NCBI GenBank assembly: GCA_030523245.1
Contig: JAUNIW010000001.1
Span: forward strand, 18,971-82,970
Source of the DNA: Pseudomonadota bacterium
GTDB taxonomy: Bacteria > Pseudomonadota > Alphaproteobacteria > RF32 > CAG-239
Direction: 5' to 3'
DNA length: 64,000 nt
Shown: in pieces, positions 8,316 through 55,278 of the stretch
Layout of the letters: every line of letters starts with the position of its first letter
Position numbering within the stretch: the first letter of the stretch is position 1
The notes under the pieces: generated by a model
The model's database searches: none
Seen by the model: only the letters and a program-made list of their open reading frames with translations
What the model was told of the DNA's origin: nothing
Program-made: the position numbers and the translations under genes

Positions 8316-8332
8316 GGATTTTCTCCTCTAAG

Positions 8333-13517: not shown

Positions 13518-13529
13518 GGGAGAAACAAG

Positions 13530-18056: not shown

Positions 18057-18069
18057 AAGGAGCAGGACA

Positions 18070-19008
18070 ATGAATTTTCAATCTAATAATATTCTTAAAT
18101 GCGCGGTGCTTGCTTCTTTGCTGACGGTTTATGCCGCTTGTCCGGTCAGGGCAGCTGATTCAGAGAAGTCGACAGGCGGAGCATCTTCCTCCGGAAAAAT
18201 ATACACGGGGGTCTATAACGGCCGGCAGATTATTCCGAATACAATGGCAATTTATTGTAAAACCAATGCCGAGGATATGCTTCAGGATACGAAAAAGTTA
18301 TCTGATTGTATAAATTTACTTATTAAAAACCTTAAAAGTTCGGATGCTTCGACTCGGCAGGAAGCTCAGGCGGATTACGGATTGATTCGCTATGAAGAGT
18401 TGTCAACAATGATGGCCCAATCCATCGCTAAAGGAGCGGCAATTGCCAACTATGAAGAAGTTCAGAATTCTGTAGGTGATGCCGTGAGCCAAACTCAGAC
18501 CGAGCATGAAGATAATGTGGCTGCAGCAAATGCCCTCAGTATTTCTACCGATGTGATAAACTCCATGCGCGATTTGTATGCGGAACGATTGAAATATGAA
18601 GCTGTTTTGGGAATAGAAACAGTTGATATTTCAGCTATAGCAGATGTGTCCGATTCAGAAAATGTTTTAGAGAATAAGAGTTCTTCCAAGACATCTTCAG
18701 AAGGTACGGGAAAAGAAGGCTCGGGAGAAAAAGGTTCGAAAGAAGAAGGTGAAAACGGTACATCGGAAGGTGTTAAATCTTCGGATACGGCAGAGATGTG
18801 TTCAAAAGACGGGTTGAACAAAATTACAACGCATACGGTTATCTCTTCTGCCGACGGTATCGGTAAATGTTCGGATGGAAAGAATACAGCAGCTTGTCCG
18901 GATGGTCTCTATGAATCAAACGGTACCGGTTATATTGTCTGCAGAGGCGGAAATTGTATCAGCTGTCTGGATGAAGTCGTCGTCGAAGGGACCGGAAAAG
19001 GAAATTAG
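18070..19008 (+). CDS. secreted protein, helical N-domain and Cys-rich C-terminus, unknown function
   Basis: 312 aa with signal ..CPVRA, a helical middle, a Ser/Glu/Gly/Lys low-complexity tract, and a C-terminal ~70 aa with 7 Cys. The gene is tightly spaced in the T4SS operon. Confidence 0.55.
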   Translation: MNFQSNNILKCAVLASLLTVYAACPVRAADSEKSTGGASSSGKIYTGVYNGRQIIPNTMAIYCKTNAEDMLQDTKKLSDCINLLIKNLKSSDASTRQEAQADYGLIRYEELSTMMAQSIAKGAAIANYEEVQNSVGDAVSQTQTEHEDNVAAANALSISTDVINSMRDLYAERLKYEAVLGIETVDISAIADVSDSENVLENKSSSKTSSEGTGKEGSGEKGSKEEGENGTSEGVKSSDTAEMCSKDGLNKITTHTVISSADGIGKCSDGKNTAACPDGLYESNGTGYIVCRGGNCISCLDEVVVEGTGKGN

Positions 19009-19114
19009 AAAGCTAAAAGGCGGAAAATTTCGGCAGATAAGTTTTACCGCATATAAATGATGAACAAAGAATAAAACATTACTGAATTATAAAAGAATCA
19101 TGAGGAGAAAGGAA

Positions 19115-20557: not shown

Positions 20558-20577
20558 TCAGAGAGAAAGGAAAGGCC

Positions 20578-21864: not shown

Positions 21865-21878
21865 TAAAGGAGCTGACC

Positions 21879-24800
21879 ATGAAAAAGATTATATGCACAA
21901 TTATTTTAGCAAGCAGCCTCTTAATCAATCAGCCTGCCAAAGCCATAATATATGACTATACGCCGCTGTTACCGTATGCCACACAGGTTTGCTATCAATG
22001 TACACCGGCCGTGATTGCAACCGTATTGACATCAGCTGCCGAAGTAAAATCTTTATATGACAAGTATAAAGGCGGTCAGTTGATTACCTCCCTTTCTCAA
22101 AACGCCAAGAGTTATGCCTTGTCAACGGCCAACACCGAATTTATGAAACGTTATAATAACGTTCTTTCACGCAAGAAAGTCGTATCATATTCGCGTACGA
22201 TTGAAGACAGTAAGCTGACCGAGGCAGGAAAAATAGATGATGAAGGGAAAGTTAAAGAAGCTTTTGTAAAGCTGTTTTTCCAATATCCTTCAAACAACGG
22301 TAATGTCAGAGTAACTTATGACAATATCGGGCGTCAGTTTGTAATGGACAGCACAATGGAAATGTACATTACGGGACGTGAAATGAATATAGAATTAAAA
22401 AGTATGCTGGCCGAACTCGATAAAATCGAAAAATGTCTGGTTGCCGGCGAAGATTGCTCCGAGGCAGGCATGGAAGAATATAACTGCCAGAAAGACGGTA
22501 CGGAAGATAAAGTTTGTCTGGCCCGCAATGCATTAACAGCTGCCAGAATTTATGATAAAATTATGCGTTATAACCAGTTTTTATCGGCAATGAATGCTCA
22601 ATATGATGCCGTCAGAAGCATCAATAAGGGCATTAAAGTTCTGGAGTTTGAAGCAGACGAAAAAGATAAGAAAAAGGAAAGCAGTGTTGAAGATTTGTAT
22701 TTGGCTCAACCGGTCAAAACGGCAGAAAAAATGTCTGTCCGGACAGTGGCATCGGCTTCCGTCGAAACGAAGGATGACTTTGATACGCTGGATGATGCCG
22801 GTATTGAATCTCCGGTAAATAAAACTGAATTTGATAATATGGAAGTTGTTGCCGAAGCAACCGAAAAAATGAATGAGGCAATTTTGGCTCACAACTATAA
22901 ACAATCTTTACCACGTTATCGTGATGTGTTCAAAACCTATTATCAAATGAAAGAATACCACAATAAATCTAAAGAGATTCTTTTCAAATCAGAAGGTTGC
23001 GTTCTGAATTACTTGTCCCGCTATTTTAACAATCCGGGGATGGCCTGGGCCGGAAAAAGCTGTTCTAAGACGAGTGACGGCTACACTTGCCAGAAAAAGG
23101 TTGAAACCGTAAAAGGCAGCTATATCTATCAGTTTGCTGCGGATGAGGATACGGAAAAAGGTATATATGCCTGGCTGAAAGGGTTGTATAACAGTGCTCA
23201 GGATGAAGCAAATCTGAATTATGACGGCGTTTATACAACGGATATTCAGAATGGCGAAGCGGATGCTGAAGGTATTGTAAACAGTGTGGTAAGCAACGGT
23301 GAAGATTCAATCTATATATCTCAAGAACTGGATATGGATTCGGAAGGTGTTATGCCTTTAGATAAGCTGAAATCATTTGGAAATAAGGCTTATCAGCAGG
23401 ATAAAGACGGAAAGAATTCAAAGGCTTATAAAAAGCCGTCTATAGAAGATGAGGTCTATGCCGAATCAAGAAAAAGCGGACTGATGAACTGGACATTGGG
23501 AGCTGAGATTTCTCGTCAGATAAATTCTGATGCCATAAACGGCCGTTCGGATTTCGGAGAAGTAAAAGCCGGTTATGTCGTCTGGAACGATGTTCGCAAT
23601 TTCTATGATGCGTATCTGGAAAATAAATATGAAAATATGAAAAAATATTTATCTCAGGAAACATTGCTTTCGATGTTGCCGGAAGTGGCTGCTTCTGTAA
23701 AAGATACCTATAAATATGAGGATATCCGTGATAATAACGGCAAAGTTATTAAAACGGCCGCCCAGCAAAAAGCAGAAGATCAGCAGCTTGTTAATAAATT
23801 GCTGAACAGCGTGAAGAAAGGACCGGAACCGGACGAATTGGACAAGCTTCTGGAAGAAGAAAACAAGAAGTTATCAGAATTGACGGCAAACTATCATAAA
23901 CAGTTGTCTGCATTGCAAAATCAAAAGAAAACGATTTATAACGAAATGGACAGGGACAGCACAAAGCTGAGTAATACGATTGATGAATTAAACCAGAAAA
24001 CAAAGATAATCAGCCGAGCCGGTGCAAATAATCCGGAATCGGAAGATGCTTTGATTTATGGCAAAAAGCTGGAACGAGGTTCGGGAGTATCAGTGCAGCG
24101 GGCAAGTTATGAAAATTCAATTTCTGAAAATGACGAAGCCAAAGCGAAAGCGGTTATCGAAAAGAATAATCTTTCTAATCAAACAGAAAGTCTGAAGAGA
24201 AATATAGAAAGGAATAGAGAAAGACTGGGTAAAATTGACAGACAAATATCTCAGGTAAAAGCTGATTTCGTTAAAGATTACAATGATGTGCAGGATAAAT
24301 ATAATTCCAAAATTGATAAAGCAGCAGAAGATTATCAGGCAAAAGTAACTGCTTACAAGACAGCTCTGGATAAGCTGGCAGAGACAATGCCGATAATATC
24401 GTTGATTTCCACCTTGACGAAAAATGTGCAGGAGCAGGCTGTGGCGTTGATTAATGACAGTTACCAGAAAATCAGGGGCTTAGGCGATAAAATCTATTTG
24501 CCGAATAATACGGATGTTGCCGCGATACATAAAAAATTGTTGCAGGATTTGCGGGAGATGAATATTGAATCTGATGTTTATTCTGTTTTTGCCAAGGCAA
24601 TGGCAATAACCTTGTCAAAAGTAGCCGGTGAAGAAAAAGAAGTTGCAGACAGTGACTATTTTGTCGGTCTTGTAGCGAGAGAAAGAGACTTCATGACACC
24701 GAAAACAGCGGCGACAATTTCTGCGCCGTTCAGGGAGATTTTCCACTTTGATCTGGAAGACTATGATACGGTTTTGAAGTATAAAAAAGGCGGTATAGAC

Positions 24801-25892
24801 AGTGAACCGGCATCCGTGAAAGACATAACATTGGTTGGCCCGAGTTTTACGGAGAGCGGTCTGGATATTCCGGAAATCTGGAAATATGCCTTAAGACACC
24901 GCCAATTTGTGGAGCAGCGTCTGGATTTGACTGAATTTCTGAAGAGTGAAGATTCTGAAGAATTGTTCAGGGCGTCCGGTATTTATCCTTGTAAGGTTGG
25001 AAATAAATATGTAACGGCAACGGATAAGGCTTTCAAATATACGGAACCGTTGCCGGGCAGTGTTAAGTGTACGGGACTGGAAAACTTTTCTACAAAGAAG
25101 AAATCATGTCCGACGGCCGTATTGGATGTTGTATCAAATGTGGCCCAGTGTCTGAGCGTCGGTGCGGCAGAAAACGCAAGCAAGCTGAAACAAGGAAGTG
25201 AACTGGGGCAAATAGTACAGGTTGTCGAAATACCGTCAATTATAGGCGGAACGATTTTGCCGCAATACATAAAGATTACAAAACTGAGCTTTAATCAGGC
25301 TCTTCAGGATGCCGTCATAGTTATCAATAAGTCAACGGAATTGGATGAAGAGGAAGGTCATCAGGATTATTATAATGCAAAACGAATGATGTTTGAGCGC
25401 AACCAGTTTGGTGATTATCTGGATAATATGGAAGGCGAAAAAATGATGGCTGAAGTATGTGCGCAACAAGAGATTCAGGTTGATAAAATAAAAGAAGAAC
25501 TTCTCGAAATGTTTAATTCGCTGGGTTATACAATAGAAGATGATTTTGATTTGTATGACGAGGAAGATTACCGGAAAGCCGAGCAGGTTCTTAAAGATCA
25601 TAAAACAAGCAGTCTGCGTCGTTTGAGAGAATTGACGGAGGCTGTCAACGGAACCTCTAATATTATAAAACATAATAAAGCAAAATTGCAAAATGCCATT
25701 AAGGTTTTGGAAACAGACAGTGAAGAAAAAGTTCAGATATCAGCCGAGGACGATTTGGATGAATTGTCCGAAAAAATGAAAACGGCGGAGGCTGATCAGG
25801 CTGTGGAGAAAGCTTATGAAGAGGAAAGCGACAAAGCTTATGAAAGAGATATTCAAAGAATGCAGGCACCGTACTGTGCCGTGTATCCGTGA
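21879..25892 (+). CDS. very large secreted coiled-coil protein (1337 aa), unknown function
   Basis: GGAG SD and signal MKKIICTIILASSLLINQPAKA. No internal TM segments are visible. Long Lys/Glu/Asn/Gln helical stretches are present. It is the last gene before the first virB8. Confidence 0.65.
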   Translation: MKKIICTIILASSLLINQPAKAIIYDYTPLLPYATQVCYQCTPAVIATVLTSAAEVKSLYDKYKGGQLITSLSQNAKSYALSTANTEFMKRYNNVLSRKKVVSYSRTIEDSKLTEAGKIDDEGKVKEAFVKLFFQYPSNNGNVRVTYDNIGRQFVMDSTMEMYITGREMNIELKSMLAELDKIEKCLVAGEDCSEAGMEEYNCQKDGTEDKVCLARNALTAARIYDKIMRYNQFLSAMNAQYDAVRSINKGIKVLEFEADEKDKKKESSVEDLYLAQPVKTAEKMSVRTVASASVETKDDFDTLDDAGIESPVNKTEFDNMEVVAEATEKMNEAILAHNYKQSLPRYRDVFKTYYQMKEYHNKSKEILFKSEGCVLNYLSRYFNNPGMAWAGKSCSKTSDGYTCQKKVETVKGSYIYQFAADEDTEKGIYAWLKGLYNSAQDEANLNYDGVYTTDIQNGEADAEGIVNSVVSNGEDSIYISQELDMDSEGVMPLDKLKSFGNKAYQQDKDGKNSKAYKKPSIEDEVYAESRKSGLMNWTLGAEISRQINSDAINGRSDFGEVKAGYVVWNDVRNFYDAYLENKYENMKKYLSQETLLSMLPEVAASVKDTYKYEDIRDNNGKVIKTAAQQKAEDQQLVNKLLNSVKKGPEPDELDKLLEEENKKLSELTANYHKQLSALQNQKKTIYNEMDRDSTKLSNTIDELNQKTKIISRAGANNPESEDALIYGKKLERGSGVSVQRASYENSISENDEAKAKAVIEKNNLSNQTESLKRNIERNRERLGKIDRQISQVKADFVKDYNDVQDKYNSKIDKAAEDYQAKVTAYKTALDKLAETMPIISLISTLTKNVQEQAVALINDSYQKIRGLGDKIYLPNNTDVAAIHKKLLQDLREMNIESDVYSVFAKAMAITLSKVAGEEKEVADSDYFVGLVARERDFMTPKTAATISAPFREIFHFDLEDYDTVLKYKKGGIDSEPASVKDITLVGPSFTESGLDIPEIWKYALRHRQFVEQRLDLTEFLKSEDSEELFRASGIYPCKVGNKYVTATDKAFKYTEPLPGSVKCTGLENFSTKKKSCPTAVLDVVSNVAQCLSVGAAENASKLKQGSELGQIVQVVEIPSIIGGTILPQYIKITKLSFNQALQDAVIVINKSTELDEEEGHQDYYNAKRMMFERNQFGDYLDNMEGEKMMAEVCAQQEIQVDKIKEELLEMFNSLGYTIEDDFDLYDEEDYRKAEQVLKDHKTSSLRRLRELTEAVNGTSNIIKHNKAKLQNAIKVLETDSEEKVQISAEDDLDELSEKMKTAEADQAVEKAYEEESDKAYERDIQRMQAPYCAVYP

Positions 25893-25905: not shown

Positions 25906-26652
25906 ATGGCCGAGTTAGATAACGGAATGGATAAAAAGCTGATAGCCGATGCGAATGCGCCTCAGAAAAGCTTTAATCCGCAATATGTAACAGATGACAG
26001 AATAAACGGGCGTTCGGCAAAGGAAGTTTATTTCCGCTGGCTTTCTCGATTGGTTATGGTTTGTGCGGTTTTGTCGCTGGGAGCATTCCTTTGTGCGTCT
26101 TTGGTTATTTTCCGTCTGGCACCGGAGATTATTGTCGAACCGCTGCTGATTACCAGCCAGAATGATTCGGAAACAATGGTCAGATATGAACCGATAACAC
26201 CTAAAATGCCATCTATCAAAAAAATGACAGAATTATTTGTTAAACAATATGTCATTATGAGAAACACGGTTATAAATGACGAGGATGAAATGAGAACCAG
26301 ATGGGGACCGGGAGGTATTGTGGCATATCTTTCCACACCGCAGGTCTATCGGGAGTTTGTCGGAAAAAATATAAAAGATGTCGGCAGAATGTTTGAAAAA
26401 GGTTACTCAAAAGAAGTCCGCATTGACAGTGTCGGTCAGGTCAGTGAAAGCAGTCCGGCTTGGATTGTAAACTTTACAATCTATAATCTTTCACAAAAAA
26501 ATGAAACGAACGGACTTACCTTGAAAAAAACAAAAATGAGAGCTTCTTTAACACCGCGTTTTATTCCTGAGCGTGGTGCGGTTTATGCTCGTCTGATAAA
26601 TCCGCTCGGATTTACGGTGATTAAATATAATCAAGATGAAATTCGTGAATAA
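25906..26652 (+). CDS. virB8: VirB8-family T4SS protein, copy 1
   Basis: 248 aa with a cytoplasmic N-tail, a single TM (VMVCAVLSLGAFLCASLVIF) and a periplasmic domain containing FVKQYVIMRNTV, which resembles the VirB8 f-v--Yv--RE-y motif. Confidence 0.7.
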   Translation: MAELDNGMDKKLIADANAPQKSFNPQYVTDDRINGRSAKEVYFRWLSRLVMVCAVLSLGAFLCASLVIFRLAPEIIVEPLLITSQNDSETMVRYEPITPKMPSIKKMTELFVKQYVIMRNTVINDEDEMRTRWGPGGIVAYLSTPQVYREFVGKNIKDVGRMFEKGYSKEVRIDSVGQVSESSPAWIVNFTIYNLSQKNETNGLTLKKTKMRASLTPRFIPERGAVYARLINPLGFTVIKYNQDEIRE

Positions 26653-26789
26653 TTTGTTTAAGCAATTTTAATCTTTTTATTTTAATATAATACCCAAAGG
26701 AGTATCCGGAAGAAACCGTAAAGTCGGTAAAAGCCTGATAATCCCTTGGGTATAGTCGATTCTATATATAGAAAATGGAAGATATGCAA

Positions 26790-26981
26790 ATGTCAAAAAA
26801 AATTTTATTGATAATGAGTTTATTGCTGATTTTATCGGCATGCAGCCTTTTTGGTTCATACTATGAACCGGAAGCCATCGGTCCGGGTAAAGATGTGAAC
26901 GAGTTAAAACTCTCTCCCTGTGCATGTATGCAGGTAGAAACCATAAAAAACGTACCGGATTGGTTTTGGGAAACAATTTAA
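26790..26981 (+). CDS. small lipoprotein, VirB7-like
   Basis: The ATG at 26790 gives a 63-aa protein with the lipobox LLILSAC. Size and location next to virB8/virB9 fit VirB7-type lipoproteins. Confidence 0.45.
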   Translation: MSKKILLIMSLLLILSACSLFGSYYEPEAIGPGKDVNELKLSPCACMQVETIKNVPDWFWETI

Positions 26982-26995: not shown

Positions 26996-27742
26996 ATGGC
27001 TGATCAACTGGGGGTAAACAATACGCAGCAAAAACTTTTGAATTCCGGTTCACAGGTTCGGCCGGGAATGCGTTCCGGTACACGGCGTATTAACCGTAAT
27101 GAAGATAGTCTGGTTGTTAATGCCAGTGAGAAAAGATATTTGTGGACGGCACGTGCGTTTGCCGTTGTGACCGCCGTCAGCCTTTGTTGCAATATAATCT
27201 TATTGCTGACCATTGCCAATATTGTTCCGTTGTATCGGGTAGAGCCGTATCTGTTGACCTTAAGCAATAAGGAAGAGCAGGTTTACCGGATTGTTCCCTA
27301 TACACGCAATATGGATTCGAATAAGGCTATTACCGAAACATTTATTCGCGAATATATTTTGCTGCGTACGACTTTATTGCCGGACACCGAAGAAATGGAA
27401 GTCAGATGGCAGAACGGCGGTGATTTGCAGGAAATGTCATCATCTATTGTTTATCAGGACTTTTTGAAAAATACAGGCCGCAAACTGATGCAGCGTATGA
27501 AACAAGACGGCTTGACAAGTTCCGTTAAGATTTTAACCGTCAATGAAATCGAAGAAGGAACATGGCAGGTAGAATATAAAGTGGACTATTATCTGCCGTC
27601 ATCATACACACCAAAGACAATTCGTTACCGTGCCAGTCTGAAGGTGCAATATCAGCCAAGAAGAGTTCAATATAAAGAAAGGTTGAAAAATCCGGTCGGA
27701 TTTAAAGTCATTTCATACGGAACAAAGCAATTGAAAGATTAA
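26996..27742 (+). CDS. virB8: VirB8-family T4SS protein, copy 2
   Basis: 248 aa with the same architecture as copy 1 but divergent (EKRYLWTARAFAVVTAVSLCCNIILLLTIANIV TM; FIREYILLRTTL). Confidence 0.7.
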   Translation: MADQLGVNNTQQKLLNSGSQVRPGMRSGTRRINRNEDSLVVNASEKRYLWTARAFAVVTAVSLCCNIILLLTIANIVPLYRVEPYLLTLSNKEEQVYRIVPYTRNMDSNKAITETFIREYILLRTTLLPDTEEMEVRWQNGGDLQEMSSSIVYQDFLKNTGRKLMQRMKQDGLTSSVKILTVNEIEEGTWQVEYKVDYYLPSSYTPKTIRYRASLKVQYQPRRVQYKERLKNPVGFKVISYGTKQLKD

Positions 27743-27759: not shown

Positions 27760-29463
27760 ATGAAAATGAGTTTAGTAAAATGGAGCGTTTTGTTAGGGTT
27801 GGTAGGTATGGCCAATATTTGTCCGGCTCAGCTGATATCAGATACGGAAAGCTTGGATCAGTATGATGAACAGTCGCAAGGAAATTATCAGCCGATGAAT
27901 TTGAACTATGCCGGTTTTAATTCAATCGGTATGATTCAAAGCGCTTGGCAGGATCCTTTACAGAATTTGGGTGAAGGACAGACAAAACCGGCGTACTCCA
28001 AGTATTATTGGACTCCTGATTTGGTTTTACCGATACGTGTACGTGAAGGAATGATAACACTGGTAAACTTTCCGGAATGGGAATTTATTGAAAGAGTTTC
28101 TTTTGGTGATACGGGTTCATTTTCCGGAAATATTTCATCACCGAATACGGTAATGCTTTATCCGAGCAGCGGCAGTCAGGTTGGTGTGGACAGCAACGTT
28201 GTGATTGAAGGCCGCTCCGGTAACAAATATGTTTTTTATATTAAAAGTGAAGGCGTTAATACAGAGCGCTTGACGAATGCCATTATAGATATTGATGTTG
28301 TCGGAAAAAACGGCACGTCGGGAGGTAGTCCCAGTAGCAGCGTGGGGTCGTTAGGCGGTGGTTCAGGCCACATAAATGCTAATAATTTTCGTCCGGGAGG
28401 CGATAAATTGGTGGATTCGACCTTTACCAATCGTTTTCAAAAAGAAGATTGGTTGAGAAGCCTGCCGATTGATCCGGCAAAATTCAGATTTGATATCGAG
28501 ATTTATGTTCCAAATCCGGATGATGTCGTGATAGCACCGGAACGTGTCTGGCGCGATGATATTTTTACCTATATTGATTTGGGCGAAAAAGCTTTGAATA
28601 TGACACAGCGTCCGATTGTGACGTTAATCGTCGAACGCGTTGAAACGCCGGTTGGTTTTCGGACAAAAGGGCCAAACAACCGCCTGATTATTGTAGAAGG
28701 TATCGGTGATATGGTTATGCGCAGCGGTAAAAGAATGGTTTGCCTGAAATTGCGTCGTTCAGATGAAGAAGGTTTGCAGTATGTATCGTATGCCGATAAT
28801 CCGAACGACTGGGATGTTGCTCCGGCCATTCCGGACGGGAGAACGGGCCGCAGCGGAAACAGTAACAATGGCAATGGGGGAGCAGGCGGCAGTTCCGGTG
28901 CGGAAACAAGTGCTTTGAACAGCGGTGTTGCAGCCGGTGCGGTTGCCGGCGGCGCGGCAGTGTCAGGTGCGGATTCCGGTATTATTTTCAGTAACGGAAA
29001 CGGCTCAAACATGATTCGCCTGCCGAATAATATTGACGGCGGCGCGGGCGGAAGTGCTTCATCATCCGGTATATCCGGAGGAAGCGGAATGCCGGCAAAT
29101 GTTGACTGTTCCAAAATGATAAAAGCCGGAAGCAATTGCAATCCTGATGTCCAAAATCCGTATCCGCGTTATAAGTACGGCAGTGCATTTATCGGACAAG
29201 ACGGAGAAAATCTGTCGATAGAGTTGGGCACAGATTCAAATGTGAATAATCTTGAAACTCTGTGGAAAGATTTATCCGGTCGCTATTCGGCATTGCTCGG
29301 CGGGTATGAACCTTTTTATTCGGTTGACGCACCGGCAGACGGGCAGGGAAAAGAATTGTTCCACTTGCGCGTTGGACCGGTTAAAAGCTTGGAAACCGGA
29401 GATTCCGTATGCAGTCAGCTGGGGCGCGGCGGTGTATTTTGTAGTGTTGTGAGAGTGCAATAA
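27760..29463 (+). CDS. virB9: VirB9/TrbG/CagX-family protein with Gly-rich linkers and C-terminal SPOR-like domain
   Basis: 567 aa with a signal peptide. The VirB9 N-domain is IRVREGMITLVNFPEWEFIERVSFGDTGSF...NKYVFYIKSEG and the C-domain is VWRDDIFTYIDLGE...RPIVTLIVER...LIIVEGIGDMVMRSGKRMVCLK. These are followed by Gly/Ser/Ala tracts. The last ~85 aa (ENLSIELGT...LWKDLSGRYSALLGGYEPFYSV...LFHLRVGPVKSLETGDSVCSQLGRGGVFCSVV) have the SPOR beta-alpha-beta-beta pattern. Confidence 0.8.
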   Translation: MKMSLVKWSVLLGLVGMANICPAQLISDTESLDQYDEQSQGNYQPMNLNYAGFNSIGMIQSAWQDPLQNLGEGQTKPAYSKYYWTPDLVLPIRVREGMITLVNFPEWEFIERVSFGDTGSFSGNISSPNTVMLYPSSGSQVGVDSNVVIEGRSGNKYVFYIKSEGVNTERLTNAIIDIDVVGKNGTSGGSPSSSVGSLGGGSGHINANNFRPGGDKLVDSTFTNRFQKEDWLRSLPIDPAKFRFDIEIYVPNPDDVVIAPERVWRDDIFTYIDLGEKALNMTQRPIVTLIVERVETPVGFRTKGPNNRLIIVEGIGDMVMRSGKRMVCLKLRRSDEEGLQYVSYADNPNDWDVAPAIPDGRTGRSGNSNNGNGGAGGSSGAETSALNSGVAAGAVAGGAAVSGADSGIIFSNGNGSNMIRLPNNIDGGAGGSASSSGISGGSGMPANVDCSKMIKAGSNCNPDVQNPYPRYKYGSAFIGQDGENLSIELGTDSNVNNLETLWKDLSGRYSALLGGYEPFYSVDAPADGQGKELFHLRVGPVKSLETGDSVCSQLGRGGVFCSVVRVQ

Positions 29464-29474: not shown

Positions 29475-32400
29475 ATGAGTAAAGAAGTATTAACACATTC
29501 GGACAGATATGTCCGCAAAACAAACCGGATAATTTTGATTGTCGGAATTATTACCTTATTTGTTTTTTTGTTCGGGTTAATGCTTTTGACAACGGAAACA
29601 CCGGAAGAAGAACAGCATTATGAAATTGAGGATACCATAGATGCTGAATCTGATTTGGGAATGGGTACGGCAACAAATAATGAGGCGGACATAGAATTTA
29701 ACGAAGCCGAAGAAATAGAGCGGCCGATTACCCTGACGCCAAATCCGATAAATATGGGACAGGTTGTTCTCGGAAGTGATGCCACGAATGTTTTGACTAT
29801 CGGAACAAACGGTAAAGGAGCGATTCGTATTCTTTCCGTAGATTTGGAAGAAGTTGCATTTGAGGGGTTTACGTTTGAGACAAATTGTAACAATAAGGAA
29901 TTACGCGGCAAAATAACTTGTACGGTTACCATGAAATGGACGCCGACAATAGCCGGAAATGTTCAAAATAATTTCAAAATCAGTTGGCATGAAACAAATG
30001 TTTCCGATAAAAATGCCAAGCATGATGAAGTTCCCGTATATGGAAATGCCATTCATAAAGAAGACTGCAATTTTTGTGATAACGGCACGGGAAATACTGT
30101 TCAGACGGATTTGAAAAGCAACGGGCGTGTTCGTTATGCCATCGGTCCGGACGGTAAAATAATCGGTATTGTCGGAGAGGACGGTATTGTCAGGGACGCC
30201 AATGGCAATGAAATAGGGCGTATGAACGCTGATGGCATGATTGTTGATAAAGACGGCAATATTATTGGTGTTGCTTCTAACGGAAAACTGATTTTGGACG
30301 ACAACGGCAATGTTATCGGTTACGTTGATGCCGACGGCGTAGCGCATGATATGGACGGCAATGTTATCGGTACAATGTTGTCTGACGGGACGATTGTCGG
30401 CCTGAACGGAGAAATTTTGGGACATGCCGTGGACAGCGGGTATGTGTATGATTCCAACGGTAACATTATCGGACGGGTGCTTGAAGACGGTACGGTGGTT
30501 GATCTTGACGGTAATGTTATAGGCCGCGTGAACGAAAAAGGCGAGGTTGTTGACAAAGACGGCAATATTATCGGTTACGTGGCAAAATCCGGTGAAGTTG
30601 CGTTTGATGAGAACGGCAACCGTTTAGGTGTTATTATGCCAAATGGTCGTGTTGTTGATGAAAACGGTGATGTTGTGGGTTTTGTTGATGCCGACGGCAA
30701 TGTTAATCAGCAGCAGAAAATCGGCAAGCGGGGTTCTGCCGCCCAGATGGTTCTTGATGAAAACGGTAATGTTATCGGGTATATTGACGAAAACGGCATA
30801 GCCAGAGATTTTAATGGTAATGTTATCGGTCATGTAGATGAAAACGGCAATATTGTCGACGAGAATGGTAAGATTATCGGAAAAGCCGGTGACTGGCAGG
30901 ATTTGGTTCTTGATGAAAACGGTAATGTTATCGGGTATATTGATGAAAACGGCCTGGCGCGTAACGACAAAACGGTTTTTGGTTATGTTGATGCCGACGG
31001 TAATGTAATCGGTAATAAAAATATATCGGATATTTCAGAACTTTCAATTATTGGCAGAAGAGATAAAAACTCTAATCTTGCTTTGGATAAAAACGGGCAG
31101 ACAATAGGCTGGGTTGATGAAAACAATATCGTTCGGGATAAAGACGGTAATATTATAGGTATTGTCGACAAAGACGGTAATATTCGTGCATTTGGTCTGG
31201 TTACGATAGGCGGGCTTCTGAACAGGTCTTTGCTGCCGATAACACCGGACGGCAAAGTTTTGGGTGAAGTTAATAATCGTGGTGAGGTTGTCAGCCAAAA
31301 CAAAGTTGTCGGCAAAATGCTCCCGAATGGTCTTGTAATGGATAAAGGCGGTACAAAAATTCTGGCAAAAGGTGTGCCTTACGGATATATTGTTAACTGG
31401 GGCTGCAAATATGAGTATAAACTGGACAAAGACGGCGTAGTTCGTCGGGACGGCAACGATACGGATTTAAGGATATATCCTGACGGAACGGTTTGGACAC
31501 CGGAGGGTGTTTTTGCCGGAAAAATGGTTGAAACCGGAAGTGTTTATAATGATGAATGCAATTACATCGGAGAGGCTAATGCCGATGGTTATGTGCGGGA
31601 TGCCTACGGTAAAGAGGTTGGATGCTTAAATCCGGACGGAACCGTGCTGGACTTGGAAAAACCCCAGATAAAAGGTCATCTGGTAGAACAGAAAACGGTT
31701 ATGTCCTTAGACTGGCAGCCAATGGGAACGCTGGAGGCAAATGGTACTTTACGCCAAAACGGTCTGGATATTATCGGATGCGTGAATAACCGCGGAGAAG
31801 TCTTTGATAAAGATATGGCTTATATCGGGAGAGCTTCGGATGCGCATTATATTTTTGACCTGAAAGGTAAACCTTTGGGTGTTTTTGATAAAAAAGGAAA
31901 AATGCCTTCTATTGGAAAAACCGGAGCACATTTGTTTTTGAAGAATCTGGTTGCCGACCAAAATAACCAGATTATCGGTTTTGCGGCACCGGAAGTAAAT
32001 ATATTGATAGACGGCCGCGGCAATATTATGGGACATCTTTTTGCCGATGGTAATGTTTATGATGAAGAAGGCAAGATTGTTGATAAAATCAGCGGTAACG
32101 GTACGGGGCTTTATAATGGAACACCGGCCAGATTTTTGAAAACGGGATACGTTGTTGACATGGACGGCCAGTTTTTAGGCTATGTCAACTATGATTTAAG
32201 TATCGTGGATATAAAAGGCACGATTATCGGCCGTATTGATGCCAAAGGTCAATTTTTTGATGAAAACGGCCGGCAACTTGGCGGAATTGTTAAACAAGGC
32301 GGTGTCCGCGGTTACAACGGAAGTTACTTAGGCTATGTTGTCGCTTCGGGCGATGTTGTTGAATTGGAAAATGCCGAGAACGTAGATTTGGACGGCAATA

Positions 32401-33110
32401 AATATCAACGGGGTGATATAACGGGAAGAGTTGTTCCGGACGGTCATGTTGTCAAAGACGGACGTCTGATGGGGGAAGTTCTTCCGGAAACGGCAATGGT
32501 AAATATTTTTGGAAAATATGTCGGTTATGCAGATGCTTACGGGCTTGTCAAAGGGGCAGACAACCATAATATCACAGCTTTGCTGCCGGGTGGAGTTACC
32601 AATCAGAATATATCTGCTTTGCCAGACGGAATCGTTATTGATTTCGGAGGAAAAGTCATCGGAACGGTTCTGCCTGACGGCAGTTTTATGGATCAGCAGC
32701 GTTCATTATCGGGAAATGTTATGGCTGACGGCAAGGTTGCTAGCAGTGACGGCCGGCTTTTGGGCGAGGTTGTATCGGGTGATATTGTTATCGGCAATGA
32801 TGATAAAGTAAAGGGTTTTGTCGGCTTTAACGGTAAAATCTATTATAAAGGCAATGAAGTTGGTAAATTACTTACGGACGGATTAGCCGTAGATGAGAAA
32901 AATAATATACTCGGACATGTTTATAACATCGGGAGTACCATATTATCCAATAACGGAGATTATGCCGGACGTCTGGCAGCAAACGGAAAAGTTATTGAAA
33001 ATGCCAATAAAGAAATCGGTTATATGAAGAGTAACGGCTCGTTTATTGATGCGGACAGAAATGTTTCAGGGTATTTGTTGCCTGAAGTAGCGAAAAATCG
33101 GAGGAACTAA
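29475..33110 (+). CDS. bitopic membrane protein: Ig/ASH-like module plus ~1000 aa of ~17-residue DGxVVDxDGNVIG repeats
   Basis: 1211 aa. The N-tail and TM are IILIVGIITLFVFLFGLMLL. An Ig-like segment reads ITLTPNPINMGQVVLGSDATNVLTIGTNGKGAIRILSV...FKISW. Continuous repeats begin at about residue 215. The stop overlaps the virB10 ATG (TAATG). Confidence 0.75.
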   Translation: MSKEVLTHSDRYVRKTNRIILIVGIITLFVFLFGLMLLTTETPEEEQHYEIEDTIDAESDLGMGTATNNEADIEFNEAEEIERPITLTPNPINMGQVVLGSDATNVLTIGTNGKGAIRILSVDLEEVAFEGFTFETNCNNKELRGKITCTVTMKWTPTIAGNVQNNFKISWHETNVSDKNAKHDEVPVYGNAIHKEDCNFCDNGTGNTVQTDLKSNGRVRYAIGPDGKIIGIVGEDGIVRDANGNEIGRMNADGMIVDKDGNIIGVASNGKLILDDNGNVIGYVDADGVAHDMDGNVIGTMLSDGTIVGLNGEILGHAVDSGYVYDSNGNIIGRVLEDGTVVDLDGNVIGRVNEKGEVVDKDGNIIGYVAKSGEVAFDENGNRLGVIMPNGRVVDENGDVVGFVDADGNVNQQQKIGKRGSAAQMVLDENGNVIGYIDENGIARDFNGNVIGHVDENGNIVDENGKIIGKAGDWQDLVLDENGNVIGYIDENGLARNDKTVFGYVDADGNVIGNKNISDISELSIIGRRDKNSNLALDKNGQTIGWVDENNIVRDKDGNIIGIVDKDGNIRAFGLVTIGGLLNRSLLPITPDGKVLGEVNNRGEVVSQNKVVGKMLPNGLVMDKGGTKILAKGVPYGYIVNWGCKYEYKLDKDGVVRRDGNDTDLRIYPDGTVWTPEGVFAGKMVETGSVYNDECNYIGEANADGYVRDAYGKEVGCLNPDGTVLDLEKPQIKGHLVEQKTVMSLDWQPMGTLEANGTLRQNGLDIIGCVNNRGEVFDKDMAYIGRASDAHYIFDLKGKPLGVFDKKGKMPSIGKTGAHLFLKNLVADQNNQIIGFAAPEVNILIDGRGNIMGHLFADGNVYDEEGKIVDKISGNGTGLYNGTPARFLKTGYVVDMDGQFLGYVNYDLSIVDIKGTIIGRIDAKGQFFDENGRQLGGIVKQGGVRGYNGSYLGYVVASGDVVELENAENVDLDGNKYQRGDITGRVVPDGHVVKDGRLMGEVLPETAMVNIFGKYVGYADAYGLVKGADNHNITALLPGGVTNQNISALPDGIVIDFGGKVIGTVLPDGSFMDQQRSLSGNVMADGKVASSDGRLLGEVVSGDIVIGNDDKVKGFVGFNGKIYYKGNEVGKLLTDGLAVDEKNNILGHVYNIGSTILSNNGDYAGRLAANGKVIENANKEIGYMKSNGSFIDADRNVSGYLLPEVAKNRRN
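30748..30797 (+). repeat. 50-bp direct repeat, copy 1 (49/50 identical to 30904-30953)
   Basis: tggttcttgatgaaaacggtaatgttatcgggtatattgaCgaaaacggc. Confidence 0.9.
30904..30953 (+). repeat. 50-bp direct repeat, copy 2 (156 bp downstream, in frame)
   Basis: tggttcttgatgaaaacggtaatgttatcgggtatattgaTgaaaacggc. Confidence 0.9.
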
Positions 33111-36100
33111 TGAAAAAAAGCGGAATAATAAGATATCTGCAGGTAATAATCCTTTCATTAGGAATAGCTTTTGTGTCTGCGGCAGAAGTCTATGCGGTTG
33201 AGATTACGGCCGTGGATTTTAACGGTAATGTTATCGGACAGGTTATTTCCAACGGTTTGGTTATAAATGCCGACGGCGAGAATATCGGGTATATTACGGC
33301 AGACAGTTTAATTTTGAATAATGACAATGAAGTTATCGGCGGCGTCATCCCGCAGGGTGTGGCTATCGGTATGGATAACCGGCCTTTAGGTAAAGTCAAC
33401 AGTGATGGTTTTGTCCGCAGTGAAACCGGTAAATCTTTAGGCAGGGCATTACCGAATGGTTTAGTTGTCAATGAAGAGTTTAACGTAATCGGTGCCATTT
33501 TGTTTCCGGGGCTGATTTACGCTTCTGACGGGAGTACCGTTGGCCGTCTGACAGGTGCCGGAACATATACCAATCTGGACGGTAATGAAGTCGGTTTTGT
33601 TTCGGCCAATGGCTATGCGTATCGTAAATCCGGAGAAGAATATCTTTTGGACGGTCGTTTGATGTCATCTAAAATGGTTGTATCCCTGACCGGAGAATTT
33701 ATCGGCAGCATCTCACCGTCCGGACGGGTAATTAACTTTGAAGGCAAAGATATCGGTAAAATACATGCTAATGAGTATGTTTATGATAACCAGAATCAGA
33801 TAGTGGGGCGTCTTGTTTGTACAGGATATGCCTTTGATTTGAACGGGCGCTATATGGGAATTATTACCTATAACGGAACCGTTGTCAACGGGACAGATGC
33901 CGTTGCTTTTTATCGGGCTGACGGTAATATTGTAAACAAGGACAACGAGGTTATAGGTTTCTCTGTTCCGTTATCCGCAACGGCTAATGACAATACCGGT
34001 CATTATCTCGGCCGTGTAGCACCTAAAGGACTTGTTTTGAATAATACGGAAATTGCCGGACACATCGGTATTGGCGGTTTTGTTTATGATCAAAATAATA
34101 ATAAGATTGGTCAGATAACCGTAACAGGACCTGTTTTCAATACGCTTGGTAATTTGAGCGGTCAGGCTATGAGTAACGGAACCTATATTTCTCTTAAAGG
34201 AAGCACAATCGGCCGTATAAAAGGCAGTCTGGCTTTTGACGGAAACGGTATGCTGGCCGGCGGTTTGTTGGAAAACAATATAGCGATTGGCAGCAACAAT
34301 AAAATTCTCGGTTCGGCCGAGATGAATGCTTTTGTCCTCGATGGTGCAGAACGTAAAAAAGTTTCGCCGTTTGGTTATTTGATGACCTCAGAAAATAAAC
34401 TGGACGGTCGTAGTCAGCGCTTATCTCCTGTTTATGGTTTGGAAGGACAGATATATTCTTATTTAACACCTAACGGCAGTCTGTATCGAGATGTTTCTGA
34501 TGTCAGACTGAATATGAATGGTGTTTTAACCGGAAAGAACGGATATATCGGTAATCAACTGGATATTTATTATGCTCTGGGTTTTAAAGGCCTGCCATTA
34601 GGACGTTTATCTTCAACAAATATAATTTTTGATGATAAAGGGGAAGCCGTCTATAAAGTAACACCGGGATATAATGTTGTTGCCGTTAACGGCAGTGTCG
34701 GTCAAAATATGATGCCTCTGCGCGGGTATGCCGGGTCTCGGTTTATTGCTGTCGGGACAAACGGTGATTTATTGGGATATGCCGGTGAAGACGGAAAAGT
34801 AATGGATTTGGAAGGCCATACTTACGGCCATGTTTTATACGGAAATTATGTCAGTGACAATAATAATTCGGTTACGGGAAAATTGCTGCCGTTTATCGGT
34901 GTGGGAAATGACAAATGCACGCAAATCGGTGTTGTTAATGGTCGGGGTGAAGTCATTAACAATCGTGATGTGGCCATAGGGCGGCTTTTGCCAAACGGAC
35001 AAGCGATTTCAGATGTTGGTTCGTATATCGGCTATGCCGTGTTTGAAACGGGACTGATTGATTTTGACGGCAATTATGCGGGAGTGGTCAATGCCGGAAA
35101 GGGTGTTGATATGTCAAATAAAAGTTTAGGCTGTATCAATCGTGCGGGTATCATTCTGGACAGTGATAATAAATGGCAGTATGGTGTGATTACACCGAAT
35201 CCGGTTATTGATTTTGAAAACAATATCATCGGTCAGGTTTTAGAAAACGGTGCGGTTGCCGATAACAATAATCAGATATTAGGTTCAATGCAGCCAAACG
35301 GAACAGTTGTTTCCAAATCTAAAAAAGCACTTGGTAATGTTATGCGTTATAAGGTTGCTTTCCGCGATGACAATACTTTTTTGGGAATGGTACAAAACAA
35401 CGGACAAGTTTGGGATGCAAAAAATGAAAATGTCGGACAGGTTAATTTTGACGGCAGTGTTCAGCATAACGGCGAAGTTATAGGTTTTGCTCTGTATGAT
35501 ATGTATGTATATGATAACAATTTTGTTGTTTACGGCTATATTATGAAAGACGGCGTGATTTTGAATATATCGGGCAGCAAAATGGGTAAAATGGACAGAG
35601 GTTTTGTTGTTGATAAAACAGGGCAGGTTGTCGCACGGGGAAACAGAGATTATACGGTACGGGATGCCAGCAATAATGCAGTCGGCGAATTACAGATAGA
35701 TGGCAGCGTTACAGACTATAACAGCCAGAATATCGGTTATTTGGCGGAAATCGGTATCATTCGGAATGTCAGCGGTAATGAAATTGCCAAAGCTTATCCG
35801 CTGCAATATTATATTGCTTCGGAGAAAAAGCCGGACAGCGGGCAAGATTGGGCTGATTATAAAAAAGTACAGATTCAGGATGAAGGAAAGACTAAAGACA
35901 AGGTACCGACGGAACAGAAACAAACTGGCAGCAGTTTTAACCGGCGGATTATCGGAATAGCACTGAGTCCGGACGGAGATATTCTGGGAAGCATTTACGA
36001 TGATAATAAAGTATATAATGAAGACGGCAGCCAGATTGGTTTCAGAACGCCGGATGGAATGATTGTGGATATGAAATACAACCCGATAGGTGTTGAAGAA

Positions 36101-37318
36101 ATCAAAAATTCATCGGCTCAAAATATGTTTGTACCGGCCGGAACATTCGGGAGCGGCAATGCCTACGGTATAGGAAATAAACCGGCTTCGTTAGGTCCCG
36201 GAGGAGGATACGGCGAGGGGGAACGCTATGATCCGGCAAAAGCCAGTGCATTGAATCAATTGCAGGCTGCCCGACGAGAAGGAATGCAGGTCGGTTCTAT
36301 CGGAACAGATATTAAAGTATCATCGTTTACCGGATATGAAGAAGAAGGCTGGGGCGGTATAGACGCAGGCCAGATTTCAACCTGGCGTGTTGATATGAGC
36401 GAGATGATTCTTGAAGATAAGCCGATTCCGGCAGTTTTAGCTCGTTCGGTTTATGCTTCCGACGGTCTGGGTTCCAATATTCCGGTTACGGCAGTTGTTG
36501 AAAGAAATGTCTTTGCCGAAGAAGGTCGAAATATCATTATTCCGGCAGGTTCCCGTGTTATTGGCGATTTAGGCAGCGAAAACGGTGCTATGGGCGGAAA
36601 CAGCGGCGGAGCTGTAAAAATAGGAATTCAATGGCGGCGTCTGATTCGGCCGGACGGCTCGCAATTTGATTTAGGAGATGCCCAGACAGCCGATGCTCAG
36701 GGACGTGCCGGCGCTATCGGTTATTTGGATGAACAACTGTTGAAGAAATATACGGCACCGATGTTGATTACGGCAATGGAAAGCGCAACAAGCTATATGA
36801 TGGCATCGGGAGACGGCAGCACGACAACAGATTATGGAACGAGTTCGGATTCTAAGAGTGAAGCAGCAAGTCAGGCCCGTGAAAACTTCTTAAATCAAAT
36901 GAACACAATATTTGAAGAAATTATTGAAGCAAAAGCAAGTATCCGCTCTGTAACGTATGTACCGGCCGGAACTCGTATTATCATCTTTCCGAATAAAGAT
37001 TTGTGGTTAAATAGTCAGAAATTGTCTAAGACAAAAGATTCTAACGTTAGCGGAAGGGGTACTGTTGATGGGCTGGTAACGCCGGGAGAATATCTGGATA
37101 GAGATAGTGCTGTGGCAAGAGGATCTTCTACCAGCAGCGGAGAATATGAAGAAGATATCCGGCCGACCGGTGGAAATCGGTCTGCGGCCAGAAACAGAAG
37201 AAATGCAGCCAATCAGGCCCAGAGACAACGTCCAGAACAGAATAACGGCAATGTTCCGGCTAATATTCCGCAACAGACGATTTCTCCGGAAGATAGTGAT
37301 GTGCCTTCGTTATTATAG
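33110..37318 (+). CDS. virB10: giant VirB10/TrbI-family protein (1402 aa) with ~950-aa N-terminal repeat region
   Basis: The C-terminal ~320 aa show TrbI/VirB10 barrel signatures (ISTWRVDMSEMILEDKPIPAVLARSVYASDG, IIIPAGSRVIGDLGS, IGIQWRRLIRPDGSQFDL, RAGAIGYLDEQLLKKYTAPML). The N-terminus has a signal/TM followed by the same ~17-aa repeat as the upstream gene (VDFNGNVIGQVISNGLVINADGENIGYITA...). Confidence 0.85.
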   Translation: MKKSGIIRYLQVIILSLGIAFVSAAEVYAVEITAVDFNGNVIGQVISNGLVINADGENIGYITADSLILNNDNEVIGGVIPQGVAIGMDNRPLGKVNSDGFVRSETGKSLGRALPNGLVVNEEFNVIGAILFPGLIYASDGSTVGRLTGAGTYTNLDGNEVGFVSANGYAYRKSGEEYLLDGRLMSSKMVVSLTGEFIGSISPSGRVINFEGKDIGKIHANEYVYDNQNQIVGRLVCTGYAFDLNGRYMGIITYNGTVVNGTDAVAFYRADGNIVNKDNEVIGFSVPLSATANDNTGHYLGRVAPKGLVLNNTEIAGHIGIGGFVYDQNNNKIGQITVTGPVFNTLGNLSGQAMSNGTYISLKGSTIGRIKGSLAFDGNGMLAGGLLENNIAIGSNNKILGSAEMNAFVLDGAERKKVSPFGYLMTSENKLDGRSQRLSPVYGLEGQIYSYLTPNGSLYRDVSDVRLNMNGVLTGKNGYIGNQLDIYYALGFKGLPLGRLSSTNIIFDDKGEAVYKVTPGYNVVAVNGSVGQNMMPLRGYAGSRFIAVGTNGDLLGYAGEDGKVMDLEGHTYGHVLYGNYVSDNNNSVTGKLLPFIGVGNDKCTQIGVVNGRGEVINNRDVAIGRLLPNGQAISDVGSYIGYAVFETGLIDFDGNYAGVVNAGKGVDMSNKSLGCINRAGIILDSDNKWQYGVITPNPVIDFENNIIGQVLENGAVADNNNQILGSMQPNGTVVSKSKKALGNVMRYKVAFRDDNTFLGMVQNNGQVWDAKNENVGQVNFDGSVQHNGEVIGFALYDMYVYDNNFVVYGYIMKDGVILNISGSKMGKMDRGFVVDKTGQVVARGNRDYTVRDASNNAVGELQIDGSVTDYNSQNIGYLAEIGIIRNVSGNEIAKAYPLQYYIASEKKPDSGQDWADYKKVQIQDEGKTKDKVPTEQKQTGSSFNRRIIGIALSPDGDILGSIYDDNKVYNEDGSQIGFRTPDGMIVDMKYNPIGVEEIKNSSAQNMFVPAGTFGSGNAYGIGNKPASLGPGGGYGEGERYDPAKASALNQLQAARREGMQVGSIGTDIKVSSFTGYEEEGWGGIDAGQISTWRVDMSEMILEDKPIPAVLARSVYASDGLGSNIPVTAVVERNVFAEEGRNIIIPAGSRVIGDLGSENGAMGGNSGGAVKIGIQWRRLIRPDGSQFDLGDAQTADAQGRAGAIGYLDEQLLKKYTAPMLITAMESATSYMMASGDGSTTTDYGTSSDSKSEAASQARENFLNQMNTIFEEIIEAKASIRSVTYVPAGTRIIIFPNKDLWLNSQKLSKTKDSNVSGRGTVDGLVTPGEYLDRDSAVARGSSTSSGEYEEDIRPTGGNRSAARNRRNAANQAQRQRPEQNNGNVPANIPQQTISPEDSDVPSLL
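33197..36095 (+). repeat. coding array of ~17-codon degenerate repeats inside virB10 (approximate bounds)
   Basis: The G-x-V-x-[DN]-x-x-G-x-x-[IL]-G periodicity is visible from about residue 30 to about residue 995. It is more degenerate than in the upstream gene. Confidence 0.6.
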
Positions 37319-37327
37319 GAGTTGAAT

Positions 37328-52827: not shown

Positions 52828-55278
<2,451 letters not shown>

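Follow-up and report, generated by a model that had tools for sequence, protein, structure and literature searches.

Canonical VirB10 proteins of type IV secretion systems (T4SSs) are ~380-450 aa long, and RvhB10 of the Rickettsiales system (rvh) is likewise of ordinary size. VirB10 has been described as the sole T4SS subunit that bridges the inner- and outer-membrane complexes (PMC12857230). Among enlarged homologues, CagY of the Helicobacter pylori Cag system carries two extra repeat segments N-terminal to its VirB10 domain (PMC13507270), and in DotG of the Dot/Icm type IVB system a repeat region of ~600 residues, extending from a transmembrane (TM) anchor to the TrbI domain, has been proposed to form a periplasmic, beta-structured stalk channel wall (bioRxiv 10.1101/312009). 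Here we describe a 64,000-nucleotide stretch (the window, to which all coordinates refer unless another locus is named) of contig JAUNIW010000001.1 from an alphaproteobacterium of order RF32 (assembly GCA_030523245.1), in which two adjacent genes, A and B, are read from their sequences as one VirB10 that was enlarged and then divided between two genes:

29475..33110, + strand: gene A, N-terminal half of the split giant VirB10, 1211 aa (open reading frame, ORF)
33110..37318, + strand: gene B, C-terminal half of the split giant VirB10, 1402 aa (ORF with TrbI and Bflower_2 matches)

An initial annotation, made by a model from the DNA letters and their ORFs, had placed these two ORFs and the overlap of stop and ATG between them, and its coordinates and lengths were exactly borne out. 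The pair is a repeat-expanded VirB10 like CagY and DotG, and differs from both by its repeat family, its scale (~1950 residues) and its division into two polypeptides. DotG/IcmE of Legionella and Coxiella is the best functional analogy, being also a VirB10 homologue enlarged by long repeats that lie between a TM anchor and TrbI. In DotG, however, a single chain keeps the anchor and has ~600 repeat residues, as against ~1950 here over two proteins, and its repeats, which are of the pentapeptide type, are predicted beta-helices, whereas the repeat here is a 17-aa hairpin; no pentapeptide family was present in the Pfam or NCBIfam results for A and B. CagY is likewise a giant VirB10 homologue, and its structure is matched by the TrbI domain of B (Foldseek E 5e-10), but its repeats are unrelated to those of the pair, as the initial annotation had held, and it is a single chain with two TM regions. 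The repeat number of CagY changes by DNA recombination, whereas the array of B has a fixed length and lacks DNA-level repeats, a hotspot in A alone containing one ~50-nt repeat pair. Canonical VirB10/TrbI proteins (Agrobacterium tumefaciens VirB10, TrwE/R388, TraF/pKM101, ComB10) resemble the pair in having a TrbI barrel that bears two long helices and is preceded by a flexible Gly/Pro segment, and in being encoded between virB9 and virB11. They differ in that one chain bridges both membranes (PMC12857230), whereas here the barrel chain has a predicted signal peptide and the anchor lies on a second protein.

Division of VirB10 between Two Proteins

The two proteins are made up of the following parts, given with the evidence on which each rests (AF2, AlphaFold2; pLDDT, predicted local distance difference test score; PSSM, position-specific scoring matrix). 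Gene A:

29475..29588, + strand: conserved 18-aa cytoplasmic tail MSKEVLTHSDRYVRKTNR followed by one TM helix (A aa 1-38; TM aa 19-37; hydropathy)
29727..30059, + strand: ASH/PapD-like immunoglobulin (Ig) domain (A aa ~85-195; Pfam, NCBIfam, AF2, Foldseek)
30126..33080, + strand: array of ~58 beta-hairpin units of 17 aa, beta-flower type (A aa 218-1202; Bflower_2, PSSM, AF2)
30684..31169, + strand: length-variable hotspot of 51-52-aa three-hairpin super-repeats (A aa ~404-565; ortholog alignment)
33030..33107, + strand: conserved C-terminus ...KSNGSFIDxDKNVSGYxLPEVA(K/R)NRRN (A aa 1186-1211; nearly all orthologs)

Gene B:

33110..33196, + strand: Sec-type signal peptide, predicted cleavage between VYA and VEITAVDF (B aa 1-29; sequence pattern)
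33197..35809, + strand: fixed-length array of ~51 hairpin units (B aa 30-900; PSSM, alignment, AF2)
35810..35947, + strand: disordered acidic/lysine-rich linker (B aa 901-946; pLDDT below 50, concentration of indels)
35948..36100, + strand: three further hairpin units (B aa 947-997; PSSM units at 947, 964 and 981; pLDDT ~90)
36101..36337, + strand: Gly/Pro-rich disordered linker, then a helix (aa 1042-1058) leading into the barrel (B aa 998-1076; AF2)
36338..37021, + strand: TrbI/VirB10 beta-barrel with two long inserted helices (B aa 1077-1304; PF03743, Foldseek, AF2)
37022..37315, + strand: disordered variable tail ending in DVPxL[LFI] (B aa 1305-1402; pLDDT below 35)

The identification of B as a giant VirB10 in the initial annotation is supported by the TrbI family PF03743, which matches aa 1100-1300 (E 4.5e-31, 108.6 bits against a cut-off of 35), and by Foldseek matches of its barrel to six solved VirB10-family proteins, among them CagY, TrwE, TraF/pKM101, ComB10, and Xanthomonas VirB10 (E 5e-10 to 1e-7). 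NCBIfam equivalog models for VirB10/ComB10 score below their cut-offs (88 vs 220 and 108 vs 300 bits), marking B as a divergent member of the family. In the AF2 model of B, which covers aa 560-1402 and was built from a 56-sequence alignment, aa 560-900 form an unbroken run of hairpins with pLDDT >90, residues 907-944 are disordered, and two long helices in the barrel (aa 1209-1231 and 1248-1276, pLDDT 50-75) are what we take, from the model, to be the antenna projection. The barrel had been assigned to the last ~320 aa; a TrbI barrel is indeed present there, but the last ~90 aa (from 1313) are predicted to be disordered. The extreme end of this tail, DVPxL[LFI]-COOH, is conserved across orthologs despite the ~95 variable residues of the tail, and could be a docking or sorting signal. 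An NRRN sequence in the tail was considered as a motif common to the C-terminus of A and was rejected, being unconserved among B orthologs.

In the full-length B orthologs inspected, a short basic n-region, a variable hydrophobic stretch and an AxA-like site precede the strongly conserved (A/Q)EITA(I/V)DFNG; a few orthologs are 5'-truncated calls and fall outside this pattern. Variable n- and h-regions, an AxA-like site, and a conserved mature start are together the signature of a cleaved Sec signal peptide, which would here replace the tail and TM anchor of VirB10. Tail and anchor, which in VirB10 share a chain with the barrel, are absent from B and both sit on A. Because B lacks the anchor and A supplies it, we read the pair as a split VirB10. 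The VirB10-like N-terminus that the initial annotation saw in A, a tail and one TM segment, is confirmed by a TM helix at aa 19-37 (hydropathy 3.09), and tail and TM segment are nearly invariant across orthologs. Its Ig/ASH module likewise stands, with matches to Pfam ASH (E 9e-4) and NCBIfam choice-of-anchor D (E 9e-8), both below cut-off, and Foldseek matches to the PapD-like domains of CEP192 and HYDIN (E ~2e-6, target TM-score 0.6-0.7); the AF2 pLDDT of this domain is about 80.

At the junction, which reads TAATG, one base is common to the TAA stop of A and the ATG of B, and a GGAGG ribosome-binding site for virB10 is located within the final codons of A (33096-33112). The one-base overlap and the position of this site inside A suggest that the two proteins may be translated together and in matched amounts. 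The GGAGG is encoded by the Arg-Arg codons of the C-terminal NRRN of A.

Single-chain relatives were found by searching A aa 1-217 against 1.8 billion representative proteins, which returned proteins of ~1500-2360 aa whose N-termini resemble A in tail, TM segment, and Ig module; all of the giants checked carry Bflower_2 repeats and a C-terminal TrbI. Three of them, P0159 (32% identity, E 2e-29), P0162 (E 5e-23), and P0181 (E 6e-22), match this part of A at 28-32% identity and also resemble B in their TrbI C-termini (33-47% identity, E 1e-68 to 5e-33), and four further giants of 1930-2363 aa combine the A-like N-terminus with Bflower_2 and TrbI. In the loci L019 and L020, virB9 and virB11 flank one giant gene, and the partner gene is absent. 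The order virB9-A-B-virB11 is seen in 16 of the 18 split-type loci, down to 36% B identity; the two exceptions are L008, which begins within virB10, and L013, which has a ~110-nt gap between A and virB10. Those related loci that reach far enough share the order virB8-virB8-virB9-A-B-virB11.

The Hairpin Repeat and Its Family

Self-similarity, scored as mean BLOSUM62 against shuffles, is strongest at a lag of 17 residues both in A (aa 218-1202, z = 15.2) and in B (aa 30-997, z = 13.5), the next best lags being 34, 51, and 85. Units were called over the same spans by dynamic programming with a PSSM refined on both proteins, using the 99.9th percentile of shuffled positions as threshold, and at least 42 were obtained in A and at least 41 in B. 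Most of these are spaced exactly 17 residues apart, and the gaps are close to multiples of 17, which implies degenerate units left uncalled; span divided by 17 gives ~58 units in A and ~57 in B. The figure of ~50 units per protein estimated initially was right, as was the view that A contains the same repeat as B, which the PSSM and Bflower_2 both support. The unit has the consensus x-[DN]-G-x-[VI]-[VI]-[DN]-x-[ND]-G-[NK]-[IV]-[IL]-G-x-[VI]-x.

The initial annotation was mistaken in calling this repeat unrecognised, since it is matched far above threshold by the Pfam families Bflower_2 (PF21785; 199.6 bits in A and 174 in B, cut-off 38), Bflower (PF21784; 89.5 bits in A and 36.7 in B, cut-off 25), and DUF3659 (PF12396; 62.9 bits in A only, cut-off 24.8). 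Bflower_2 covers the array of A in nine stretches (E 1.1e-59). The Bflower families date from Durairaj et al. 2023 and describe the beta-flower fold, in which 4-6 beta-hairpin "petals" (8, 10, or 12 strands) form a shallow barrel and carry [DNEQ]xxG at their tips. The fold is known solely from AlphaFold models, belongs to the Tubby clan, and has not been assigned a function (PMC10584680). The tip motif is present at positions 7-10 of the unit (D/N-x-N/D-G, with G at 53-78%).

Beta-flower proteins (PF21784, PF21785, PF21786, clan CL0395; DUF3659) thus resemble the arrays in their above-cut-off models and tip motif. They are, however, by prediction alone, small closed barrels of ~96 residues with 4-6 hairpins that often enclose a helix, whereas here >50 hairpins follow each other in unbroken 17-residue phase, free of helices and of a 68-, 85-, or 102-residue super-period. 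A super-period of 4-6 hairpins was considered and rejected: self-similarity peaks at lag 17 and falls off smoothly through its multiples, with no enhancement above this decay at lags 68, 85, and 102, and pLDDT dips every 4-6 hairpins are not seen in either array model. The central helix of the beta-flower was also sought with DSSP, and no helix of >=4 residues lies inside the arrays in either AF2 model. The model of A (aa 41-1211, 34 sequences) has 107 predicted strands in the array, a mean pLDDT of 82, and a predicted TM-score (pTM) of 0.72; this pTM is high for 1171 residues and suggests that A may be one defined body as opposed to beads on a string.

RHS/YD shells (Tc toxins, teneurins) are also long runs of beta-hairpins and show a weak whole-protein similarity to the arrays, RHS_repeat (PF05593; 32.2 bits against 22) and TIGR01643 YD_repeat_2x (33.5 against 15.8) both passing on whole-protein scores. 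The period of YD repeats is roughly 20 aa, in contrast to 17 aa here, no individual stretch is significant, and a YD motif, RHS core, and toxin domain are all lacking. This weak similarity runs counter to the initial annotation, which had not recognised the repeat as YD. Foldseek searches of both models against the PDB matched the TrbI and ASH domains alone, with no significant match to the arrays; the best non-VirB10 match to an array was a Tc toxin shell (E 0.1, non-significant). Sequence searches of the PDB gave nothing significant for the arrays (teneurin, E 0.076), and the viral structure library BFVD returned Ig-like matches alone.

Length and Sequence Conservation of the Arrays

Across 48 orthologs that are 43-99% identical, B aa 28-900 has no indel >3 aa. 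Indels in B are confined to the linker (aa 901-946), which is 74-275 residues longer in a sister clade whose proteins have 1500-1711 aa, and the length of B is 1382-1425 aa in 96 orthologs. Compared with a 99.6%-identical strain, the array is no more variable than the neighbouring genes (~3 differences per kb), and the differences cluster mostly in the disordered tail. The variable surface layer envisaged in the initial annotation therefore does not hold for B, whose array is indel-free with ordinary close-strain variation. Its fixed length and low variation argue against a CagY-like variable surface and favour a structure of fixed dimensions.

Orthologs of A range from ~1010 to 1580 aa, and almost all of this variation falls in the hotspot in steps of ~51 aa, with indels (counting those >=6 aa) of ~50, 51, 102, 155, 201, and 363 aa. 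Elsewhere in A, indels of this size are limited to an insert of 6-7 aa (aa 206) in two sequences, the loss of 14 aa (aa 966) in seven, and two large deletions at the termini, each in a single sequence, leaving the array nearly indel-free beyond the hotspot. A is 52-73% identical where VirB11 is 94-99% identical, and so diverges faster than the remaining machine.

The repeat copies are 60-80% identical at the DNA level, and Tandem Repeats Finder detected no DNA tandem array in A or B. Inside the hotspot, a near-identical direct repeat of ~50 nt occurs at 30748-30798 and 30904-30954, 156 nt apart, and position 1 of the contig L021 from the 99.6%-identical strain falls exactly at this repeat. The copy number of the hotspot is less secure on account of the near-identical repeat and the contig break there, and the 51-aa modules may be under-counted in short-read assemblies, including the window. 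That the gene lengths or the two-gene structure as a whole are products of misassembled repeats, or of a frameshift in one long gene, is nevertheless very improbable. Repeats can collapse in short-read metagenome-assembled genomes (MAGs), and one related contig does break within the hotspot, but >100 clusters from independent assemblies and sources show an identical division into two genes, B again starting with a signal peptide, the >100 full-length B orthologs all measure 1382-1425 aa, and the DNA identity between copies is too low for collapse, the one ~50-nt pair excepted.

Origin, Proposed Mechanism, and Alternatives

In the ancestral protein a cytoplasmic tail and TM anchor were followed by the ASH Ig domain, a long run of 17-residue hairpins, and the TrbI barrel, and sister lineages still encode this layout on one chain of 1500-2360 aa. 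A neighbour-joining tree of TrbI domains groups all split forms in one clade that lies within the single-chain giants, and a single fission of an already giant VirB10 is the simplest reading of the split.

We consider it reasonably probable that A and B are an enlarged and divided VirB10 whose arrays rejoin the two membrane halves as a fixed periplasmic scaffold, by a mechanism that we infer as follows. B would be exported by Sec and its signal peptide removed, and its barrel would join the neighbouring VirB9, which has a SPOR domain, and a VirB7-like lipoprotein in the outer-membrane core complex, with the hairpin array (~54 hairpins) hanging into the periplasm. A would be held in the inner membrane, its array likewise periplasmic. 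The two arrays would stand in for the proline-rich linker that VirB10 proteins usually have and would associate non-covalently, and this pairing would rebuild the link between inner and outer membrane that is normally made by one VirB10 chain. The many copies in each machine could then build up a large scaffold or channel wall in the periplasm, fixed in size, as proposed for the DotG repeats, and the 51-aa modules of the A hotspot, at the membrane-proximal end of the array, would adjust the length on the inner-membrane side. A more specific outcome, possible but doubtful, is a T4SS that links its membranes by two proteins held together through hairpin arrays forming a fixed-length trans-periplasmic tube, sheath, or shell, with ~112 hairpins per pair multiplied by the core symmetry; if true, this would be the first T4SS whose inter-membrane link is not one continuous VirB10 chain. 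In a stronger version the stacked hairpins would make a hydrophobic or lipid-lined conduit, by analogy with the Tubby-clan affinity and the hydrophobic channel of the beta-flower.

Several points weigh against this account. The TrbI tree is midpoint-rooted, without a canonical VirB10 outgroup. A maps to residues 1-1243 of P0159 and B to residues 595-1875, so that the two cover overlapping parts of the single-chain array, and a fission scar, sought as an internal EITAIDF-like or PEVAKNRRN-like motif, is absent from the single-chain giants. Given this overlap and the absence of a surviving junction motif, a tandem duplication followed by reciprocal loss is a possible course that fits as well as simple fission. 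The conservation of NRRN at the end of A may in part be a nucleotide-level constraint, since the ribosome-binding site of virB10 is encoded by its codons. Should the signal peptide of B stay uncleaved, it would keep B in the inner membrane, although the customary tail would be missing; A could have acquired a separate role; and the binding of A to B is a step that we infer.

The last of these concerns leads to the alternative that A is a diverged tandem duplicate standing outside the VirB10 bridge, as a regulator, decoy, or independent envelope protein, with B alone in the outer-membrane complex. The overlap of A and B on the single-chain arrays fits this, as do the faster evolution of A relative to B and its varying length. 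It is made improbable by the adjacency of A to virB10 in 16 of 18 loci even at 36% B identity, by the overlapping genes and shared ribosome-binding-site arrangement, by the high conservation of the tail, TM segment, and C-terminus of A, and by an array that is almost indel-free outside the hotspot. A surface-exposed, variable layer for adhesion or immune evasion, with CagY-like recombination tuning the repeat number, would account for the ~51-aa length changes of the hotspot between strains, for the near-identical DNA repeat inside it, and for the divergence of A (52-73% identity) and of a 1337-aa protein encoded upstream (37-49%) where VirB11 is 94-99% identical. We regard it as quite unlikely, because the B array is indel-free over 870 aa and has only ~3 differences per kb between 99.6%-identical strains, like its neighbours, with most of them in the disordered tail, and because the DNA copies, at 60-80% identity, form no tandem DNA repeat. 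The predicted topology, moreover, puts both arrays in the periplasm, that of A following an N-terminal anchor and that of B preceding the barrel, and the variable hotspot itself sits membrane-proximal in the array of A.

Hairpin repeats of similar length bind cell-wall polymers elsewhere (choline-binding, CW_binding), and the arrays might bind peptidoglycan or some other glycan and, along with the SPOR domain of the neighbouring VirB9, fix the machine in the wall or line a hole through it. This is rather unlikely: no cell-wall-binding family gave a significant match (GW E 0.04, and LytB_SH3 E 5e-4 in a relative only, both below cut-off), the ~112 hairpins of an A-B pair far exceed what wall anchoring needs, and the strict conservation of length points to an architectural role. 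Wall binding is compatible with a divided VirB10 whose arrays form a periplasmic scaffold, and the two can coexist.

VirB10 is regarded as the single T4SS subunit through which the inner-membrane motor is physically and energetically coupled to the outer-membrane pore (PMC12857230), and a clade-wide VirB10 made of two polypeptides is a natural test of whether an unbroken chain is required for this coupling. The arrays are a third independent repeat expansion in the periplasmic segment of VirB10, after CagY and DotG, and these three cases suggest that this segment is a general site for new periplasmic architecture in T4SSs. They also place the beta-flower hairpin, predicted in 2023, in a defined setting, a secretion machine and probably the periplasm.

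Distribution and Gene Cluster

B-type proteins form >900 clusters at 90% identity in public data; where named, they belong to "Alphaproteobacteria bacterium" MAGs and are called "TrbI/VirB10 family protein" or "DUF3659 domain-containing protein", the names also given to >100 database proteins that combine PF21784/PF21785 with PF03743. The co-occurrence of repeat and TrbI, which the initial annotation proposed to look for in databases, is therefore already on record. Its description of the elaboration as undescribed fails for the repeat family, which is known, and for the TrbI fusion, which is part of database annotation; it stands for the arrangement, as our literature searches found no description of a split VirB10 with beta-flower repeats. 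The MAGs that contain related loci were recovered from chicken ("Candidatus Scatocola"), rumen, and the human gut (Hadza, Nepal). Scatocola is classified by NCBI under Rhodospirillales and presumably by GTDB under order RF32. The same T4SS is found at 67-69% identity in L006 ("Bacteroidaceae bacterium") and L017 ("Eubacteriales bacterium"), which are probably mis-binned contigs. A conserved chromosomal T4SS probably matters for the dealings of these uncultured gut Alphaproteobacteria with their host, protists, or other bacteria.

The remaining T4SS genes of the window lie on both sides of the pair:

12748-13913: three VirB2-like genes (tandem paralogs; signal peptide plus two hydrophobic segments in each)
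14379-14669: VirB3-like gene, 96 aa, overlapping VirB4 (follows the VirB2-like genes)
14666-17095: VirB4
17181-25892: five ORFs between VirB4 and VirB8 (no family match)
25906-26652: VirB8, first copy
26775..26981, + strand: lipoprotein in VirB7 position, 68 aa, with LSAC lipobox, between the two VirB8 genes
26996-27742: VirB8, second copy
27760..29463, + strand: VirB9/CagX homologue with C-terminal SPOR (PF03524 E 3.5e-11; SPOR E 2.6e-4)
37322..38302, + strand: VirB11 ATPase, directly downstream of B (T2SSE E 1.8e-25)

The SPOR domain (peptidoglycan-binding) of VirB9 occupies aa 487-565, and a weak SPOR match also occurs on the VirB9 of L020; we know of no SPOR fusion in canonical VirB9. The cluster resembles the rvh T4SS in its duplicated VirB8 flanking a small lipoprotein, followed by virB9-virB10-virB11 (PMC2653234), and also in its several VirB2-like genes and chromosomal location. 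The position of the lipoprotein between the VirB8 copies is that of VirB7 in the Rickettsiales rvh system, and its counterparts in L019 (7490-7693) and L020 (7231-7410) belong to a set of 59-68 aa with a conserved ELKxSPCAC. The gene is missing from the ORF list, whose lower limit is 80 aa. In the rvh system VirB4, VirB8, and VirB9 are each duplicated, there are five paralogs of VirB6, and VirD4 comes after VirB11, whereas the window has one VirB9, one VirB4, no VirD4, and no polytopic VirB6 paralogs, the VirB8 duplication alone matching. The five ORFs after VirB4 were considered as VirB6 paralogs and rejected, since none of them has more than one hydrophobic segment or matches TrbL, and no VirB6/TrbL homologue is recognisable in the cluster. 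One of the five is the 1337-aa ORF mentioned above, which has a signal peptide and coiled coils.

Neither a VirD4 coupling protein nor a relaxase was found among the large ORFs scanned in 37322-64000. Downstream, engB and yidC lie on the opposite strand, followed in the near-identical strain (L021) by yidD, rnpA, and rpmH, and the neighbourhood of engB and yidC indicates that the T4SS is chromosomal; gyrB is found at 52828-55269. A 141-aa coiled ORF follows the three VirB2/pilin-like genes. Further upstream, at 2600-10745 on the - strand, is a type IVb/Tcp-like pilus or type II secretion system (T2SS)-like set with T2SSF, a T2SSE ATPase, PilO, a secretin, and TcpQ, adjoined by a 570-aa acidic low-complexity ORF at 10792-12504.

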